Part shown: one piece after another, positions 8,206 through 39,900 of the stretch
Layout of the letters: the number at the start of each line of letters is the position of its first letter
How positions within the stretch are numbered: the stretch's first letter is position 1
From: Escherichia coli
GTDB lineage: Bacteria > Pseudomonadota > Gammaproteobacteria > Enterobacterales > Enterobacteriaceae
Strand: one strand, 5' to 3'
Length of the DNA: 64,000 nt
Assembly (NCBI RefSeq): GCF_003790525.1
Contig: NZ_CP033635.1
Position numbers and translations under genes: made by a program
Notes under the pieces: generated by a model
The model's database searches: none
Seen by the model: only the letters and a program-made list of their open reading frames with translations
What the model was told of the DNA's origin: nothing

Positions 8206-8281
8206 TGGCTCCTCTGACTGGACTCGAACCAGTGACATACGGATTAACAGTCCGCCGTTCTACCGACTGAACTACAGAGGA
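8206..8281 (-). tRNA. asnW: tRNA-Asn (GTT anticodon)
   Basis: 76-nt reverse complement of the tRNA-Asn sequence also present at 10030 and 12439; ends in CCA. Confidence 0.95.
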
Positions 8282-10029: not shown

Positions 10030-10105
10030 TCCTCTGTAGTTCAGTCGGTAGAACGGCGGACTGTTAATCCGTATGTCACTGGTTCGAGTCCAGTCAGAGG
10101 AGCCA
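10030..10105 (+). tRNA. asnU: tRNA-Asn (GTT)
   Basis: TCCTCTGTAGTTCAGTCGGTAGAACGGCGGACTGTTAATCCGTATGTCACTGGTTCGAGTCCAGTCAGAGGAGCCA. Confidence 0.95.
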
Positions 10106-32257: not shown

Positions 32258-33592
32258 TCAGAACATACTCACCACAAGAAATCCCAGAAGCACTGAGAAA
32301 GCAATAGCCAGTACACCCGGAATAAAGAAAGCATGGTTGAACACATACTTACCAATACGGGTCGTTCCTGTGTCATCCATTTGCACCGCCCCCAGAAGGG
32401 TTGGGTAAGTTGGTAACACAAATAAAGCAGACACAGCAGCAAAAGAAGCTACCAGCATGTAACTGTCATCCGGATTCGCTGCAGTAATACCCAATGCAGT
32501 CACAATAGCCGGAGTGATAGCTTTGGCAGTTGCAGCCTGTGAATACAGAAGCATCGCAGCCAGGAAAAATACCACAGCCAGAAGAGCTGGATACTGGGAT
32601 ACAGTAGTTCTGGCAAGCTCCTTAATTTCTCCTGAATGACCAGATACAAAAGTGTCCCCCAACCATGCCACACCCAGTACACAGATACAGGCAACCATGC
32701 CTGACTTGAACACAGAGGAGTCCGCAATCTTGTTTATATCTGCTTTACAGAAAAGGGTAATGAATCCGCCAACCAGTAGCATGAGACTCATAATAGCCGC
32801 ATCACGACTAACAACAACGTTATCAATCAGACCCAGCGTCGGGCTAATGGCCGAAGCGTAAAGGACCACCAGGATGACGCCAATAAGGAAAATTGCGACA
32901 GATCGTCTGGCATAAGGCTTGAGCTGTTTGTTAACACTCTTTACTGGCGCGCTTACGAGTCCTTTGGAAAGACGCTCCCGGTAAACCGGATCATTGTCTA
33001 ATTTCATGTCAGAAATCAGACTGATTATAAATGCGGTAAGCATGCAACCAACGAATGTGGTAAACAACCATATCCCAAGCAATACTGGATAACTCCACCC
33101 AAAGCCTTCCAGTACGCCAGACATATAGATAACGGCAGCCGATACAGGTGATGCTGTAATTGCAATTTGAGATGATACAACCGCAATTGAGAGCGGACAT
33201 GAGGGCTTAATGTTTTGTTCTTTGGAAACTTCGACAATTACAGGGATCATTGAAAATGCAGTATGTCCCGTACCGGCAAAGATTGTCAGCACATAAGTGA
33301 CAACCGGAGCCAGGTAATTAATATATTTTGGATTTTTACGAAGAATTCGTTCAGCGACCTGAACGAGATAGTCCAGTCCTCCCGCCAGTTGCATGGCCGA
33401 AATAGCAGAAATTACCGATGCAATAATTAGAATCACATCCCAGGGGATATTACCAGGCTTCATATCCAGACAAAGCCCCAGAATCAATACCCCAATGCCA
33501 CCGGCATAACCAATACCAATCCCGCCCATACGGACACCCAAAAAGATTGCCCCCAGCAGAACCACTATCTGAAGAACAGTGATAATATCCAT
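32258..33592 (-). CDS. DcuA-family anaerobic C4-dicarboxylate transporter paralog, downstream of the AspA-like gene
   Basis: 444 aa ORF; N-terminus closely parallels DcuA (…GNIPWDVILIIASVISAISAMQLAGGLDYLV…). Confidence 0.85.
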   Translation of the reverse strand: MDIITVLQIVVLLGAIFLGVRMGGIGIGYAGGIGVLILGLCLDMKPGNIPWDVILIIASVISAISAMQLAGGLDYLVQVAERILRKNPKYINYLAPVVTYVLTIFAGTGHTAFSMIPVIVEVSKEQNIKPSCPLSIAVVSSQIAITASPVSAAVIYMSGVLEGFGWSYPVLLGIWLFTTFVGCMLTAFIISLISDMKLDNDPVYRERLSKGLVSAPVKSVNKQLKPYARRSVAIFLIGVILVVLYASAISPTLGLIDNVVVSRDAAIMSLMLLVGGFITLFCKADINKIADSSVFKSGMVACICVLGVAWLGDTFVSGHSGEIKELARTTVSQYPALLAVVFFLAAMLLYSQAATAKAITPAIVTALGITAANPDDSYMLVASFAAVSALFVLPTYPTLLGAVQMDDTGTTRIGKYVFNHAFFIPGVLAIAFSVLLGFLVVSMF

Positions 33593-33747: not shown

Positions 33748-35148
33748 TTATTGTTCGAACTTCGGAGCAATCAGATTATCCAGATTGAATGTCTTCTCCC
33801 ATTCTTCCTGTGTGAGTAGCTTACGTTCGACAACCACTATCTGATGGAGGGATTTGCCTGTATGGTATGCTTCGTGCGCCATTTCAGAACACACCTTATA
33901 TCCCAGATGTGGCTTCAGGAGAGTCACAATACCGCAGGAATGCATTACCATCTCTGCAGTTCGATCGGAATTAGCTGTAATGCCATCAATGCATTTAGTT
34001 CGGAGTGTGTTACAGGCATTCGTCATCACCTTGAGTGAGGTGAACAGCGCAAAGGTGATGACCGGCTCCATAACGTTAAGCTCAAGCTGACCAGCAGATG
34101 CCGCCAGCATCACTGTGGTGTCCAGCCCCTGAACCAGGAAGCAAGACTGGTTTGTTACTTCCGGGATAACGGGGTTAACCTTACCAGGCATAATGGAAGA
34201 ACCCGGTTGCAATTGAGGCAGGTTAATTTCAGCCAGGCCGCAACGGGGGCCTGAAGCAAGCAGTCGAATGTCATTACAAACCTTGGTAAGCTTCACAGAG
34301 AGGCTCTTCATGGCCGAACTGAGTGCAACATATGCACCACAGTCGCTTGTGGCAGCGATGAGATCTTCACTGTTCCTGAAATTAATGCCTGTGATCTGGG
34401 CCAGATATTTCACGGCTAAAGCGGGATAATCCGGGTGAGCGGTAACACAGGTACCAATCGCAGTAGCACCAAGGTTTACAACCCGCAGGTGTTCCTGTGC
34501 ATTACGGATGACCCGAATTTCATCATTAATTGTAAAACCCCAGCCATGGAACTCCTGGCCGAGAGTCATTGGCACTGCATCCTGCAGGTGAGTACGTCCC
34601 ATCTTGAGCACTGTGCTGAACTCGTCAGCCTTTTTGTAGAATGCTCCTACGAGGTGTTCAACAGCTTCAAGCAATACATTGCTTCGCAGCAGCAATGCCA
34701 GATGTAATGCTGTCGGATATGTATCATTGGTGGACTGACCAAAATTAGCATGGTCGTTTGGCGAAACGCGTTTGTAATCCCCTTTAACGCTACCAAGTTT
34801 TTCTGCAGCAAGATTACAAATCACTTCATTGCAGTTCATATTGGTTGACGTTCCGGCTCCCCCCTGAAGCCAGTCGGTCACAAACTGTTCCCGGTACTTA
34901 CCATCAATTAATTGGTCGCAAGCCCAGATTAAAGCATCCGCAACATCAGCAGGAATTGTACCTAACTCCTTATTAGCCATCGCAGCTGCTTTTTTCACAT
35001 AACCGAAGGCAATGATGAAGAAGGGCTCCTGACTCATTGGCATTTCAGTAATATGGAAATTATCCTCACCACGAAGTGTCTGAACACCATAATAGCAATC
35101 ATCCGGAACTTCACGCTCACCAAGGAAATCGCTTTCAATACGAGACAT
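33748..35148 (-). CDS. aspartate ammonia-lyase-family enzyme (AspA paralog), copy 1
   Basis: 466 aa ORF with fumarate-lyase signature GSSIMPGKVNPV; gene order lyase then Dcu transporter mirrors aspA-dcuA. Confidence 0.85.
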   Translation of the reverse strand: MSRIESDFLGEREVPDDCYYGVQTLRGEDNFHITEMPMSQEPFFIIAFGYVKKAAAMANKELGTIPADVADALIWACDQLIDGKYREQFVTDWLQGGAGTSTNMNCNEVICNLAAEKLGSVKGDYKRVSPNDHANFGQSTNDTYPTALHLALLLRSNVLLEAVEHLVGAFYKKADEFSTVLKMGRTHLQDAVPMTLGQEFHGWGFTINDEIRVIRNAQEHLRVVNLGATAIGTCVTAHPDYPALAVKYLAQITGINFRNSEDLIAATSDCGAYVALSSAMKSLSVKLTKVCNDIRLLASGPRCGLAEINLPQLQPGSSIMPGKVNPVIPEVTNQSCFLVQGLDTTVMLAASAGQLELNVMEPVITFALFTSLKVMTNACNTLRTKCIDGITANSDRTAEMVMHSCGIVTLLKPHLGYKVCSEMAHEAYHTGKSLHQIVVVERKLLTQEEWEKTFNLDNLIAPKFEQ

Positions 35149-36013
35149 AATTTTCTAACTCCATTTTTCGAAAACAATGTGACAATAACAAATTGTTTTC
35201 ATAAAACACTTATCCAACATTAAGAATGAATACTTATAATCACCAGATGACATAACCATTACCATCTAATGGAATATATTTAAACTAATAAGATAAACTT
35301 AAAACGTGATATCAAGCACATTTTTATAACGTTAAAATTAGTGGGTTATTTAGCAATCAAATATAACCAGTAAAAGCCCGAAATATGCAGATAACGCTGC
35401 ACTAATATGATTAAGATCAAAAAAAACAATTCCGCAATCAAACTTATTATTAATGCTGATTTTTTAAATCATGATTAAGTAGAACTATTTTATAATAGCA
35501 TCCCGGTTTGGTCACATCCTTCAGAAAAACAACCTGTTTACCACCATAGAAAATCTATATCTCTGCTAGGTTTTCCAGCGTTGTAGATATAGTCACTCAT
35601 GGTGATTCTTATTAAGATAAGAGTTTTTACACGGGAATGTTATTGCACTTCTAATTGATAAATCTTGGAATAGAGTAGAAAACGTAATGTTTCCACTCCA
35701 TCTTCCGCTTTAATGGTTTGTAATTTGAGTTAGATCATGGATTTTAACATCCATTATGATTAATTATTTTTAGATGATTTGATCACTAAATCGTCTTTCA
35801 GGGTGTAACGGCATTAATCATCACAAGCTAAAAAAACGCCATACTGTAATGGAGTCTGTATTTTATGTTCAATCATGCAAAGGCTCTTCATAATTATCAT
35901 TTCTCTCTTGGAAAAATGACAGCCTGAACATAGCATAAATTCACGTTCTTCAGAGTCAGAAGGTGTTAATAAACTGTCCCTAAAATCTGGAAAATGTTGA
36001 AGAAGGCATCTCA

Positions 36014-37270
36014 ATGGATATTGTCGAACGCTTTATCAATTATACAAAAATTAATACCACTACCTCACGAGAAAACGGCGCAAAAGGGATCATGCCTTCA
36101 TCTCCTGGTCAGATGAAACTTGCGAAATTGTTGGTGAGTGAACTTGAAGCATTGGGTATGGAGGATATTATTCTCAGAGAGAATGCTATCGTAACAGCAA
36201 CACTCCCTGCAAATACTGACGAAACAATCCCCGTCGTTTCCTTTTTTGGACATCTGGACACCAGTGCCGAACAGACAGCCGATACAAAAGCGCAACGATT
36301 ACCTTATAATGGGGGCGATCTCTGTCTGAACCCTGAACTGAATATTTATTTGCGTGAGAGTGAATTCCCGGAGCTCAAAAATTATATTGGCGATGACCTT
36401 ATAGTGACAGATGGTACCAGCCTTCTGGGGGCCGATGATAAAGCGGCGCTGGCGGCCATAATGAACGCACTTCAATTTCTGATTTCTCATCCTGAAATCA
36501 GGCATGGAGAAGTTAAAGTTGGGTTTGTGCCAGATGAAGAGCAGGGGTTACGGGGGGCCAAAGCCTTCGATGTTTCAGAGTTTGGCGCAGATTTTGGCTA
36601 CACTCTGGATTGCTGCGGTATTGGAGAATTTGTTTACGAAAACTGGAATGCGGGTGATGCAGAAATTATCTTTACCGGCCAGTCTGCACACCCTATGTCA
36701 GCGAAAGGCAAGCTTAAGAACTCTCTTTTGATGGCTCACAAATTCATTTCGATGTTGCCAGGAGGAGAAGCGCCTGAATATACAGAAGGACGCGAAGGCT
36801 ATTATTGGGTGAAACAGTTACAGGGAAACAGTGCCAGAACTGTACTAAAACTGGATATACGAGATTTCAGCGAGGAAGGATATCACGCCCGGAAGACATT
36901 TGTACGCCAGCTTGCAGAAAGTGCTTGTGCATTATGGGGAGAAGGAAGCGTGATCTGCCAACTGAGCGATCGGTACGCCAATGTCTTTAACAGTCTGCAG
37001 GGAGAGGGGCATTATCCCATCGACATTGCCCTGCGAGCTTACCAACGATGTGGTATTACTCCGACACCGGTGGCGATGCGTGGAGGATATGATGGCGCTG
37101 TTCTTTCACAAAAAGGATTACCCTGCCCGAACATTTTTACCGGCGCACATAATTTCCATTCTATCTATGAATATCTTCCAGTCCGTTCACTTCGGGCGGC
37201 AAGTGATGTGGTTATTGCCATCATTCAGGAGACATTCAATGGGTTCACCACAGGGAATCGTGAGTCATGA
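36014..37270 (+). CDS. peptidase T-like M20-family peptidase
   Basis: 418 aa ORF; HLDTS, GADDKAA and FVPDEE metal-ligand motifs. Confidence 0.75.
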   Translation: MDIVERFINYTKINTTTSRENGAKGIMPSSPGQMKLAKLLVSELEALGMEDIILRENAIVTATLPANTDETIPVVSFFGHLDTSAEQTADTKAQRLPYNGGDLCLNPELNIYLRESEFPELKNYIGDDLIVTDGTSLLGADDKAALAAIMNALQFLISHPEIRHGEVKVGFVPDEEQGLRGAKAFDVSEFGADFGYTLDCCGIGEFVYENWNAGDAEIIFTGQSAHPMSAKGKLKNSLLMAHKFISMLPGGEAPEYTEGREGYYWVKQLQGNSARTVLKLDIRDFSEEGYHARKTFVRQLAESACALWGEGSVICQLSDRYANVFNSLQGEGHYPIDIALRAYQRCGITPTPVAMRGGYDGAVLSQKGLPCPNIFTGAHNFHSIYEYLPVRSLRAASDVVIAIIQETFNGFTTGNRES

Positions 37271-38818: not shown

Positions 38819-39900
38819 TGTGCGCCGGGCATGGCGCGTAGCGCCGTGACTGGCGCTGTTCTTCAACTGTGGTGGCTGAAGAACGACTAAGAGGTGAAAG
38901 TCCTCCACACACCCGGTGAGGGGAAGTGTTAGCGGAAGGCAAGGGTGTTCATCGCGAGGTGAAATCTGAAGGAAGCCGGATGCAAAATGCTGGCCTGACG
39001 AACAGGAAGCGGTTAAGGCGGCGCAGCAGGGTAAGGTGGCACAAATCACCAAAGCCCGATACTCACACGGAACGCTGTGACGTAAAGCCGACAGGCATAA
39101 GCAGGAAAGTCGCGTGAATTACCCCGGGAGATCTGTCGCCCTGCCAGTGTGCTACCGGTGCCGTGAGGCGCCGGGATGGGGCGGCAGAAGTCAGCCGACG
39201 CCGTAGTAGTGCTGCAAAACCGGCAGCATGAAGGGCCGAACATGATTAACTGTGATTAGGACATCCGAACCCGATGATGATTAATGAAGCACACGCGCAG
39301 GCAACTGCGGCCAGCGGCAGAGGAGACGGACAGTATCCGTCAGGGCTGCATGATGGCGCTGAAATCAGCACGGCGGCGGGTGGGCAAACGAAAGCGGAAG
39401 TGCCGCTGACGATGGAAGCGGTGATAACGAGAGAAAACCTGATGCTGGCTTATCAGCGCGTGGTGGAAAACAAAGGTGTGTCGGAGTTGAAACCGTGGCT
39501 GAAGAAGAACTGGCGCAGCGTATGGCAGGTATTGATTGACGGAAACTACCAGCCGCGGGCAATACGCCGGATGGATATCCCGAAGCCGGATGGCGGCGTG
39601 AGAACCTTAGGCATCCCGACGGTGGTGGACAGGCTTATCCAGCAGGCGATAGCGCAGCAGTTAAGCGCCATCGTGGACACAGCTTCTGCCGCTACGCAGA
39701 CGACTGCAACATCTACGTAAGCAGCCGGAAAGCGGGCGACCATCTGCTGAAGGACATCAGGGCGTTCGTGGAGAGCAAACTGAAACAGAAGGTGAATGAG
39801 AAGAAGAGCGCGGTGGCGCGCCCGTGGGAGCGGAAGTTGTGGGCTGACAGTGACGGACCGTGCTGCTTCACCAAACGCCTTGGACGGCAGGCGGAACTTG
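38819..39900 (+). mobile_element. truncated group II intron: GUGCG 5' end, structured GC-rich domain I region and a degraded intron-encoded reverse transcriptase
   Basis: GTGCGCCGGGCATGGCGCG… at 38819; ORF 39274..39720 has RT domain 0-2 residues (IPKPDGGVRTLGIPTVVDRLIQQAIAQ); a YADD motif appears out of frame downstream. Confidence 0.6.

Follow-up and report, generated by a model that had tools for sequence, protein, structure and literature searches.

The 64,000-nucleotide stretch of Escherichia coli DNA studied here (contig NZ_CP033635.1 of assembly GCF_003790525.1; referred to as the window) carries two almost identical copies of an aspA-like gene on opposite strands, which raises the question of how the pair arose, what keeps the copies alike and what becomes of the DNA between them. 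From the comparison of sequences across genomes, we consider it very probable that the two copies are paralogues of one horizontally acquired aspartase-type gene, that they co-evolve by gene conversion, and that crossover between them repeatedly inverts the intervening 27.6 kb.

A window-wide repeat search returned one dominant inverted repeat, by far the longest repeat in the window, with arms at 33983-35198 and 62785-64000 (1216 nt, 99% complementary, spacing 27,586 nt), its lower limit of 33983 being set solely by the end of the window. The full repeat was read in E. coli MS6198 (L001), a complete genome closely matching the window, where it measures 1451 bp with 9 mismatches and no gaps (99.4% identity), the arms lying head-to-head on opposite strands. 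The initial annotation, which had judged by eye that two AspA-like genes were nearly identical in opposite orientation about 27.6 kb apart, was therefore right, and the similarity stays as high when the sequence beyond the window is aligned. Projected onto the window, the full arms occupy 33748-35198 and 62785-64235. Arm A (minus strand, 33748-35198), as delimited by the repeat search, the open reading frame (ORF) list and alignment, comprises the aspA-like coding sequence at 33748-35148 (466 aa) and a shared 50-nt leader at 35149-35198. Arm B (plus strand, 62785-64000), delimited by repeat search and alignment, begins with the same leader (62785-62834) and continues into the coding sequence from 62835, which is truncated by the window end; the complete arm B is seen in MS6198 at L001 33811-35261, and its window equivalent would end at ~64235.

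Each arm thus holds a 50-bp leader and the entire 466-codon gene, so that copy A begins at 33748 and not at 33982, as first annotated. In pairwise alignment the homology between the arms starts sharply 50 bp upstream of the ATG, an abrupt stop as had been described, at 50 rather than ~45 bp, and it ends exactly at the TAA stop codon. Upstream of -50, no similarity between the two arm flanks was found by pairwise alignment. In the main lineage, a degenerate end of an IS2-like insertion sequence (IS) begins 34 bp past the stop codon, where the arm homology stops. The nine mismatches, at -21, -18, -4, +40, +81, +82, +84, +99 and +126 relative to the ATG, all fall within one 5′ stretch (35023-35169, minus strand, in arm A by alignment; arm-B counterpart 62814-62960), in agreement with the clustering earlier noticed in the first ~150 bp. 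They lead to two protein differences, V14I and E28K, and the ~1.3 kb beyond +126 are identical.

Such identity could simply mean that the copies separated very recently, without any conversion, the 5′ differences having come with the insertion and the inversions being occasional by-products. The 99.4% identity would fit this, as would the status of copy B as a clearly added gene (no lyase follows the corresponding racemase and Dcu-transporter genes in other taxa) and the presence of a longer duplicated block in three genomes. The arms were therefore read from nine further genomes or plasmids, six of which provided both. Beyond +130, the two copies of one genome did not differ in any of these six, except at one position in plasmid pLR4 (+1293, near the 3′ edge), and the gene bodies of different genomes differed at 4-6 sites. 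At +321, +333, +358, +456 and +897, both copies within a genome carry the same allele, and this allele differs between genomes. Shared alleles of this kind cannot reasonably be parallel mutations, which argues for transfer of sequence between the copies; in a history without conversion, the same four or five mutations would have to have arisen twice.

The 5′ sites tell of the same process, with boundaries that vary from strain to strain. In GD33 the two copies differ at only 4 sites, since copy A has B-type bases at +81 to +126; A-type bases are present in copy B at +126 in ST70 and at +99 and +126 in TUM12357; both copies of plasmid pLR4 are mosaic at the 5′ sites. In GN02461 the copy behind the transporter gene dcuB432 (position B) is 100% A-type across 1451 bp and is thus fully homogenised. 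By their allele patterns, these mosaics are independent conversion tracts with different ends, and both they and the homogenised GN02461 copy require transfer between the copies. Moreover, identical junctions are common to ~220 genomes and to a plasmid lineage with ~97% identical flanks, and the gene bodies are still identical within genomes. A very recent duplication without conversion is thus largely refuted by these comparisons, and we regard it as very improbable; gene conversion, which the initial annotation had put forward beside recent duplication, accounts for single-nucleotide polymorphisms (SNPs) shared within and differing between genomes. As a separate observation, the position-B aspA of 64EVA (L091 6539-7938) is a frameshifted pseudogene with a 1-nt deletion; its copy A is intact, and conversion has not, or not yet, repaired B.

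It had also been pointed out that inverted repeats of this type can mediate inversion of the segment between them, and natural strains bear this out. A flipped-junction query, made of the exterior-left flank, the arm and, in reverse complement, the interior flank adjoining arm B, was searched against complete E. coli genomes. The flipped left junction was contiguous in 18 records at 99.3-99.8% identity, and the reciprocal flipped junction (pepT flank, arm and exterior-right) in 17 of these 18, so that 17 complete genomes or plasmids have both junctions. The native junction, as in the window, was contiguous in 204 genomes, and the flipped order makes up ~8% of natural isolates with either order. 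Three further matches with 84% coverage of the query were not inversions; they have the native order with a 461-bp-longer arm B. In typical flipped-junction matches, the shortfall from 100% consists essentially of the nine 5′ sites, which move with the interior flank. Five flipped loci were inspected (CLSC36, ST70, LS45, EC7518 and plasmid pLR4-171k), four of them end to end and the fifth over its left junction and the 20 kb to either side of it. All five are cleanly inverted: the interior is precisely reversed, with its genes in reverse order, and the exteriors are unchanged where read. In flipped genomes the interior flank keeps its nine 5′ sites, so that the crossovers fell within the identical gene body.

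Interior SNPs and structural markers divide the inspected loci into two clades, each with both orientations. In clade I, the order is native in the window and MS6198 and flipped in CLSC36 and LS45; in clade II, it is native in GD33, 64EVA and TUM12357 and flipped in EC7518. ST70 falls between the two. Among the exterior-left haplotypes, too, the orientations are mixed. Both orders thus occur on mixed haplotype backgrounds, and at least two independent flips are needed to explain this distribution; three or more are probable, the evidence for a third being thin. The island that holds the repeat is not confined to chromosomes: PLSDB has six E. coli plasmids that carry it with both aspA copies, and five of the six are predicted to be conjugative. 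Separate from these six, the NDM plasmid pLR4-171k_NDM (L092) carries the island with both copies in the flipped order. The pLR4 island is the most divergent copy seen, with flanks ~97% identical.

Hybrid assemblies can join repeats wrongly where these exceed the length of short reads, and the second copy or the inverted order might have been produced by such mis-assembly. Two copies are, on the other hand, present in ~220 independent complete genomes, the unique flanks are consistent on all four sides, and the flipped segment of inverted genomes bears SNPs, IS insertions and deletions that are specific to their lineages. The aspA region found matches in ~248 of 5426 complete E. coli genomes (95-100% identity, median two places per genome), so that an artefactual second copy, a doubt raised at the outset, can be set aside, and we give mis-assembly a next to negligible probability.

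The occurrence of both orientations in closely related strains is also what phase-variable invertons display. A programmed switch of the fim, hin or shufflon type, driven by a recombinase whose sites merely happen to lie within the aspA copies, would produce it as well. However, no invertase or site-specific recombinase is annotated in the segment or its flanks (RefSeq annotation of several genomes), where only IS transposases and relics are found; the arms are whole genes of 1451 bp and not short repeats of tens of bp; and concerted evolution along the entire arm is a signature of general homologous recombination. We therefore find a programmed switch extremely doubtful. Another candidate, a composite transposon or IS-bounded segment, was rejected, as the arms encode an aspartase-type lyase and not a transposase.

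Where did the gene come from, and which of the two copies is the older resident? With one genome examined per bacterial species, the closest relatives of the lyase are from gut Sutterellaceae, including Duodenibacillus, Sutterella, Parasutterella and Dakarella (75-89% aa identity), the next group reaching ≤53%. On the exterior side, downstream of arm A, lies the gene of a 444-aa Dcu-family transporter, here called dcuA444 (32258-33592, minus strand; from the ORF list and family models). In 50 of the 53 loci of the Sutterellaceae clade (all loci extending far enough), the lyase is likewise followed by a dcuA444-type transporter, at 73-86% aa identity. Since this order is conserved, the aspA-dcuA444 pair appears to be the original unit. 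It was probably acquired from a Sutterellaceae lineage or an unsampled relative, which points to horizontal transfer across classes, from Betaproteobacteria into E. coli. The nucleotide identity of the lyase to Sutterellaceae is only ~75%, and its GC content is 47% vs 55-60%, a difference that suggests an unsampled donor or long residence. A blastn search for Sutterellaceae similarity past the leader, by which the original upstream flank could be told, gave nothing beyond ~22 bp upstream of the ATG.

Arm B stands in another setting. It ends a module that opens with an Asp/Glu-type amino-acid racemase gene (60536-61255, plus strand; family models) and continues with the gene of a 432-aa Dcu-family transporter, dcuB432 (61314-62612, plus strand; family models), directly upstream of the arm; a LysR-type regulator gene annotated as hypT (59297-60196, minus strand) is divergent from the racemase gene. 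Identity between the two transporters, dcuA444 and dcuB432, reaches only 44%, and the genes run aspA then dcu at arm A, dcu then aspA at arm B, which indicates that the aspA gene alone was duplicated and not a block. The affinity of the racemase is gammaproteobacterial (Citrobacter 79%, Providencia 69%). The LysR/racemase/Dcu order is also found in Citrobacter freundii and Providencia, with no lyase downstream, and in the 359 E. coli genomes with a racemase-Dcu module of 85% identity, the canonical aspA is the only aspA-like gene. At the single locus of this 85%-identical module that was inspected, an IS600 remnant follows the Dcu gene, and the original downstream content is thus not shown. 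Racemase-Dcu modules elsewhere being without the lyase, copy B is most likely an added duplicate and not an old resident paralogue.

The opposite history would have conversion overwrite an ancient, diverged aspA paralogue that resided in the racemase-Dcu operon, the sharp limits of the repeat then tracing old coding homology. Conversion between old paralogues would leave homology whose limits nearly coincide with those of the gene, as is seen here. Yet the Citrobacter, Providencia and inspected E. coli module loci have no downstream lyase, and a search in E. coli for a lyase homologue of intermediate divergence, such as an unconverted paralogue would be, returned only the canonical aspA at ~67% nucleotide identity. 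To our knowledge, conversion across ~67% identity is not expected from known homology requirements, and the shared 50-bp non-coding leader favours copying over old homology. We hold an overwritten paralogue to be highly unlikely.

Addition of copy B would then have consisted of the placing of a copy that covered -50 to the stop codon, in three strains together with the first 461 bp downstream, next to the LysR-racemase-Dcu module. More may have been duplicated at first, and the block shortened afterwards. The three strains are TUM12357, WP2-S18-ESBL-08 and Br_167_kylling, in which arm B has an extra 461 bp, 100% identical to the A side, and the arms are 1912 bp long. The extension takes in the aspA-dcuA intergenic region and 306 nt from the start of dcuA444, where an intact IS2 ends it; in TUM12357 the extended arm B is located at L005 7995-9912. 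The exterior-right DNA differs in the three extended genomes.

Once two copies were in place, gene conversion by homologous recombination, presumably RecA-type, would erase differences in the gene body. It would reach the edge of the homology less often, where the cluster of 5′ mismatches would remain. Resolution without crossover would homogenise the copies, and resolution with crossover would invert the 27.6-kb interior. As each arm is a whole gene, both proteins stay intact after inversion. In the window, the order reads from the pepT-side region to aspA and dcuA444 at one end, and from the racemase gene to dcuB432, aspA and the IS relic at the other. In the flipped order, racemase, dcuB432, aspA and dcuA444 are co-directional neighbours, and the pepT-side region leads into aspA and the IS relic. 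Inversion changes which upstream region dcuA444 lies behind; neighbouring genes may be co-transcribed, and the flip may have a physiological effect.

It is conceivable that the flip is no mere neutral by-product and that the locus acts as a slow RecA-driven operon-swap switch, kept usable by conversion, with which lineages associated with extraintestinal pathogenic E. coli (ExPEC) tune an aspartate and asparagine catabolism taken over from gut Sutterellaceae to hosts or niches; we think this quite unlikely. If true, one orientation would let the D-aspartate module (racemase, Dcu transporter and aspartase) also drive dcuA444, perhaps also ansB, and the other would place dcuA444 under the control region on the pepT side.

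Several points weigh against conversion with recurrent inversion as set out above. The base-by-base comparison covers only about ten genomes. The mismatches lie at one end of the arms only; the edge effect predicts mismatches at the 3′ end too, and one was seen only in pLR4, so that the asymmetry between the 5′ edge and the nearly clean 3′ edge is not fully explained by the edge model. An end of homology exactly at the stop codon is odd for the end-point of a random duplication, and the 461-bp-longer arms of three genomes are not explained by the simple history. As to the inversions, part of the case for a third event is one SNP (L001 position 6579), and an appearance of recurrence could also be created by exchange of DNA between strains through recombination. 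Any one inverted assembly might in principle have the wrong orientation, though the 17 records come from many laboratories and long reads easily span repeats of 1.45 kb. Finally, with regard to the rewiring of operons, promoter and terminator scans around both copies gave matches at or below shuffled expectation. The initial annotation had suggested distinct promoters for the two genes; the upstream regions are indeed unrelated beyond -50, and for the promoters themselves the scans, being at chance level, give no information.

The nearest known system is the tufA/tufB pair of Salmonella enterica and E. coli; in Salmonella these are 1185-nt duplicates in inverse orientation, which gene conversion keeps co-evolving, and inversion, with hybrid operons as its product, goes along with about half of the conversion events (PMC5485169, PMC6735719). 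The conversion model for tuf predicts that differences survive mainly near the edge of the homology (PMC5485169). The aspA copies resemble tufA and tufB in being near-identical whole-gene copies in inverse orientation on one replicon, with homology bounded by the gene, in evolving in concert with variable tracts, and in recombination that also inverts the intervening DNA. On sequence-level features, the aspA pair has every one that marks tufA/tufB-type co-evolving inverse duplicates, a type of behaviour that is already well known. The aspA genes, in contrast, are accessory genes that came by horizontal transfer, where tufA and tufB are essential and belong to the core; their arms are 27.6 kb apart vs ~760 kb and do not straddle the origin; and their flip re-pairs the halves of metabolic operons. 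Inversion between the tuf genes costs 8% of growth rate and has been argued to be selected against in natural isolates (PMC6735719). Both aspA orientations occur naturally, with ~8% flipped, and dependence on RecA/RecBCD is here presumed.

Inversions between rrn operons or IS copies arise by RecA-type recombination between kilobase inverted repeats and lead to orientation polymorphism among enterobacterial strains. The aspA locus shares with them the kilobase-range inverted repeats and the polymorphism of orientation among strains; it differs in that the repeat is a protein-coding gene with its own leader, and in that the flip swaps the downstream partners of two upstream regions, beyond a mere change of gene order. 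The locus would be a clean natural example of a process that has been studied mostly in the laboratory with tufA/tufB. It would combine genes acquired across bacterial classes and kept identical by conversion with the repeated re-orientation, by the same recombination, of a 27.6-kb block and the re-pairing of operon halves. For comparative-genomics pipelines, the 27.6-kb block is to be expected in either orientation.

The assignment of the gene product is based on family models and motifs. The arm protein has 54% aa identity to K-12 AspA. It passes the NCBIfam aspartate ammonia-lyase subfamily model NF008909 (680 bits vs cut-off 510) and lies below the cut-off of the TIGR00839 equivalog (645 bits vs 681). 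Its catalytic and substrate-binding motifs GSSIMPGKVNP, GGAGTSTNMN, QSTNDTYPT and GRTHLQDAVPMTLGQEF align with those of E. coli AspA, the SS-loop signature GSSxMPxKxN included. The gene is thus predicted to be of the aspartase type, within the class II fumarase/aspartase superfamily. With the canonical K-12 aspA-dcuA it shares the order of aspA then dcuA, the enzyme superfamily and the GSSxMPxKxN loop. It differs in the 54% identity of AspA, and in that the island genes are nearest to Sutterellaceae and are additional to the canonical operon.

For the module that leads into arm B, the nearest described counterpart is orf7-orf8-orf9 of the Shigella flexneri SRL pathogenicity island, which encode a LysR regulator, an aspartate racemase and DcuA, and of which orf8-orf9 confer D-aspartate metabolism (PMC6980539). 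The LysR/racemase/Dcu order at 59297-62612 of the window is like it, the likeness being one of gene order. Unlike the SRL module, that of the window continues into an aspartase-type gene, arm B. A lyase behind the racemase would complete a route from D-aspartate through L-aspartate to fumarate. The racemase passes both TIGR00035 (amino-acid racemase) and the CuyB cysteate-racemase equivalog (250 bits vs cut-off 190). The CuyB name may be over-specific, for the racemase of the Shigella SRL island acts, in a like arrangement, on D-aspartate.

The window, which belongs to an accessory island of E. coli, is located downstream of cobUST and next to three tRNA-Asn genes; the island is present in ~4-5% of complete E. 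coli genomes (~248/5426). In MS6198, the yersiniabactin island is just upstream of the window region. The invertible interior of 27.6 kb (35199-62784; MS6198 annotation) contains the AT-rich 865-bp region upstream of copy A of aspA, pepT, dcuC, a group II intron and IS relics, followed by an isoaspartyl peptidase/asparaginase gene, a nucleoside hydrolase cluster, the dgo operon, the LysR gene, the racemase gene and dcuB432. By annotation, pepT (36014-37270, plus strand) is divergent from copy A over the 865-bp intergenic region.

Genes related to aspartate, asparagine and C4-dicarboxylates are unusually dense at 23400-44100 and 59297-64000 of the window, and also in L002 and L001. They include an argH-like lyase gene with two Dcu-family transporters and a GntR regulator; dcuR (an orphan, no dcuS being annotated), ansB, the isoaspartyl peptidase/asparaginase gene and pepT-dcuC; and the racemase gene with the two aspartase copies, Dcu- and DcuC-type transporters numbering at least 5 in total. 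The whole looks like a dedicated aspartate island. L-aspartate-driven fumarate respiration matters for enterobacterial gut colonisation. Attention is also drawn to a little-described E. coli island for aspartate, asparagine, D-aspartate and C4-dicarboxylates, which is found also on conjugative plasmids and on one NDM plasmid. We found no earlier description of the island, the repeat or the protein accessions in the searchable literature, which is part of the published work.

Further repeats and relics were seen in the window. The three tRNA-Asn (GTT) genes, at 8206-8281 (minus strand), 10030-10105 and 12439-12514 (both plus strand), are identical, one being inverted relative to the others, and form direct and inverted repeats of 84-104 nt; the asn tRNA cluster is a known hotspot of island integration. 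Outside the invertible segment, a pseudogene fragment of dgoD (galactonate dehydratase) at 22698-22953 matches, in inverted orientation and at 89-90%, the stretch 55736-56030 of the intact dgoD inside it, and colibactin-island relics (a ClbP fragment and a thioesterase fragment) adjoin this fragment. Within the interior, a 144-nt inverted repeat (98%; 49514-49657 and 58028-58171) flanks a block of IS relics, an intact ISEc31 and the dgo operon with a transporter of the major facilitator superfamily. An Rfam scan gave no match to an RNA family within the arms or next to them. It located group II intron domain pieces at 38948-39236 (plus strand), beside a maturase fragment, and on the minus strand the small RNA isrC at 51872-51994 and, beside an IS200 relic, STnc490 at 58604-58727.

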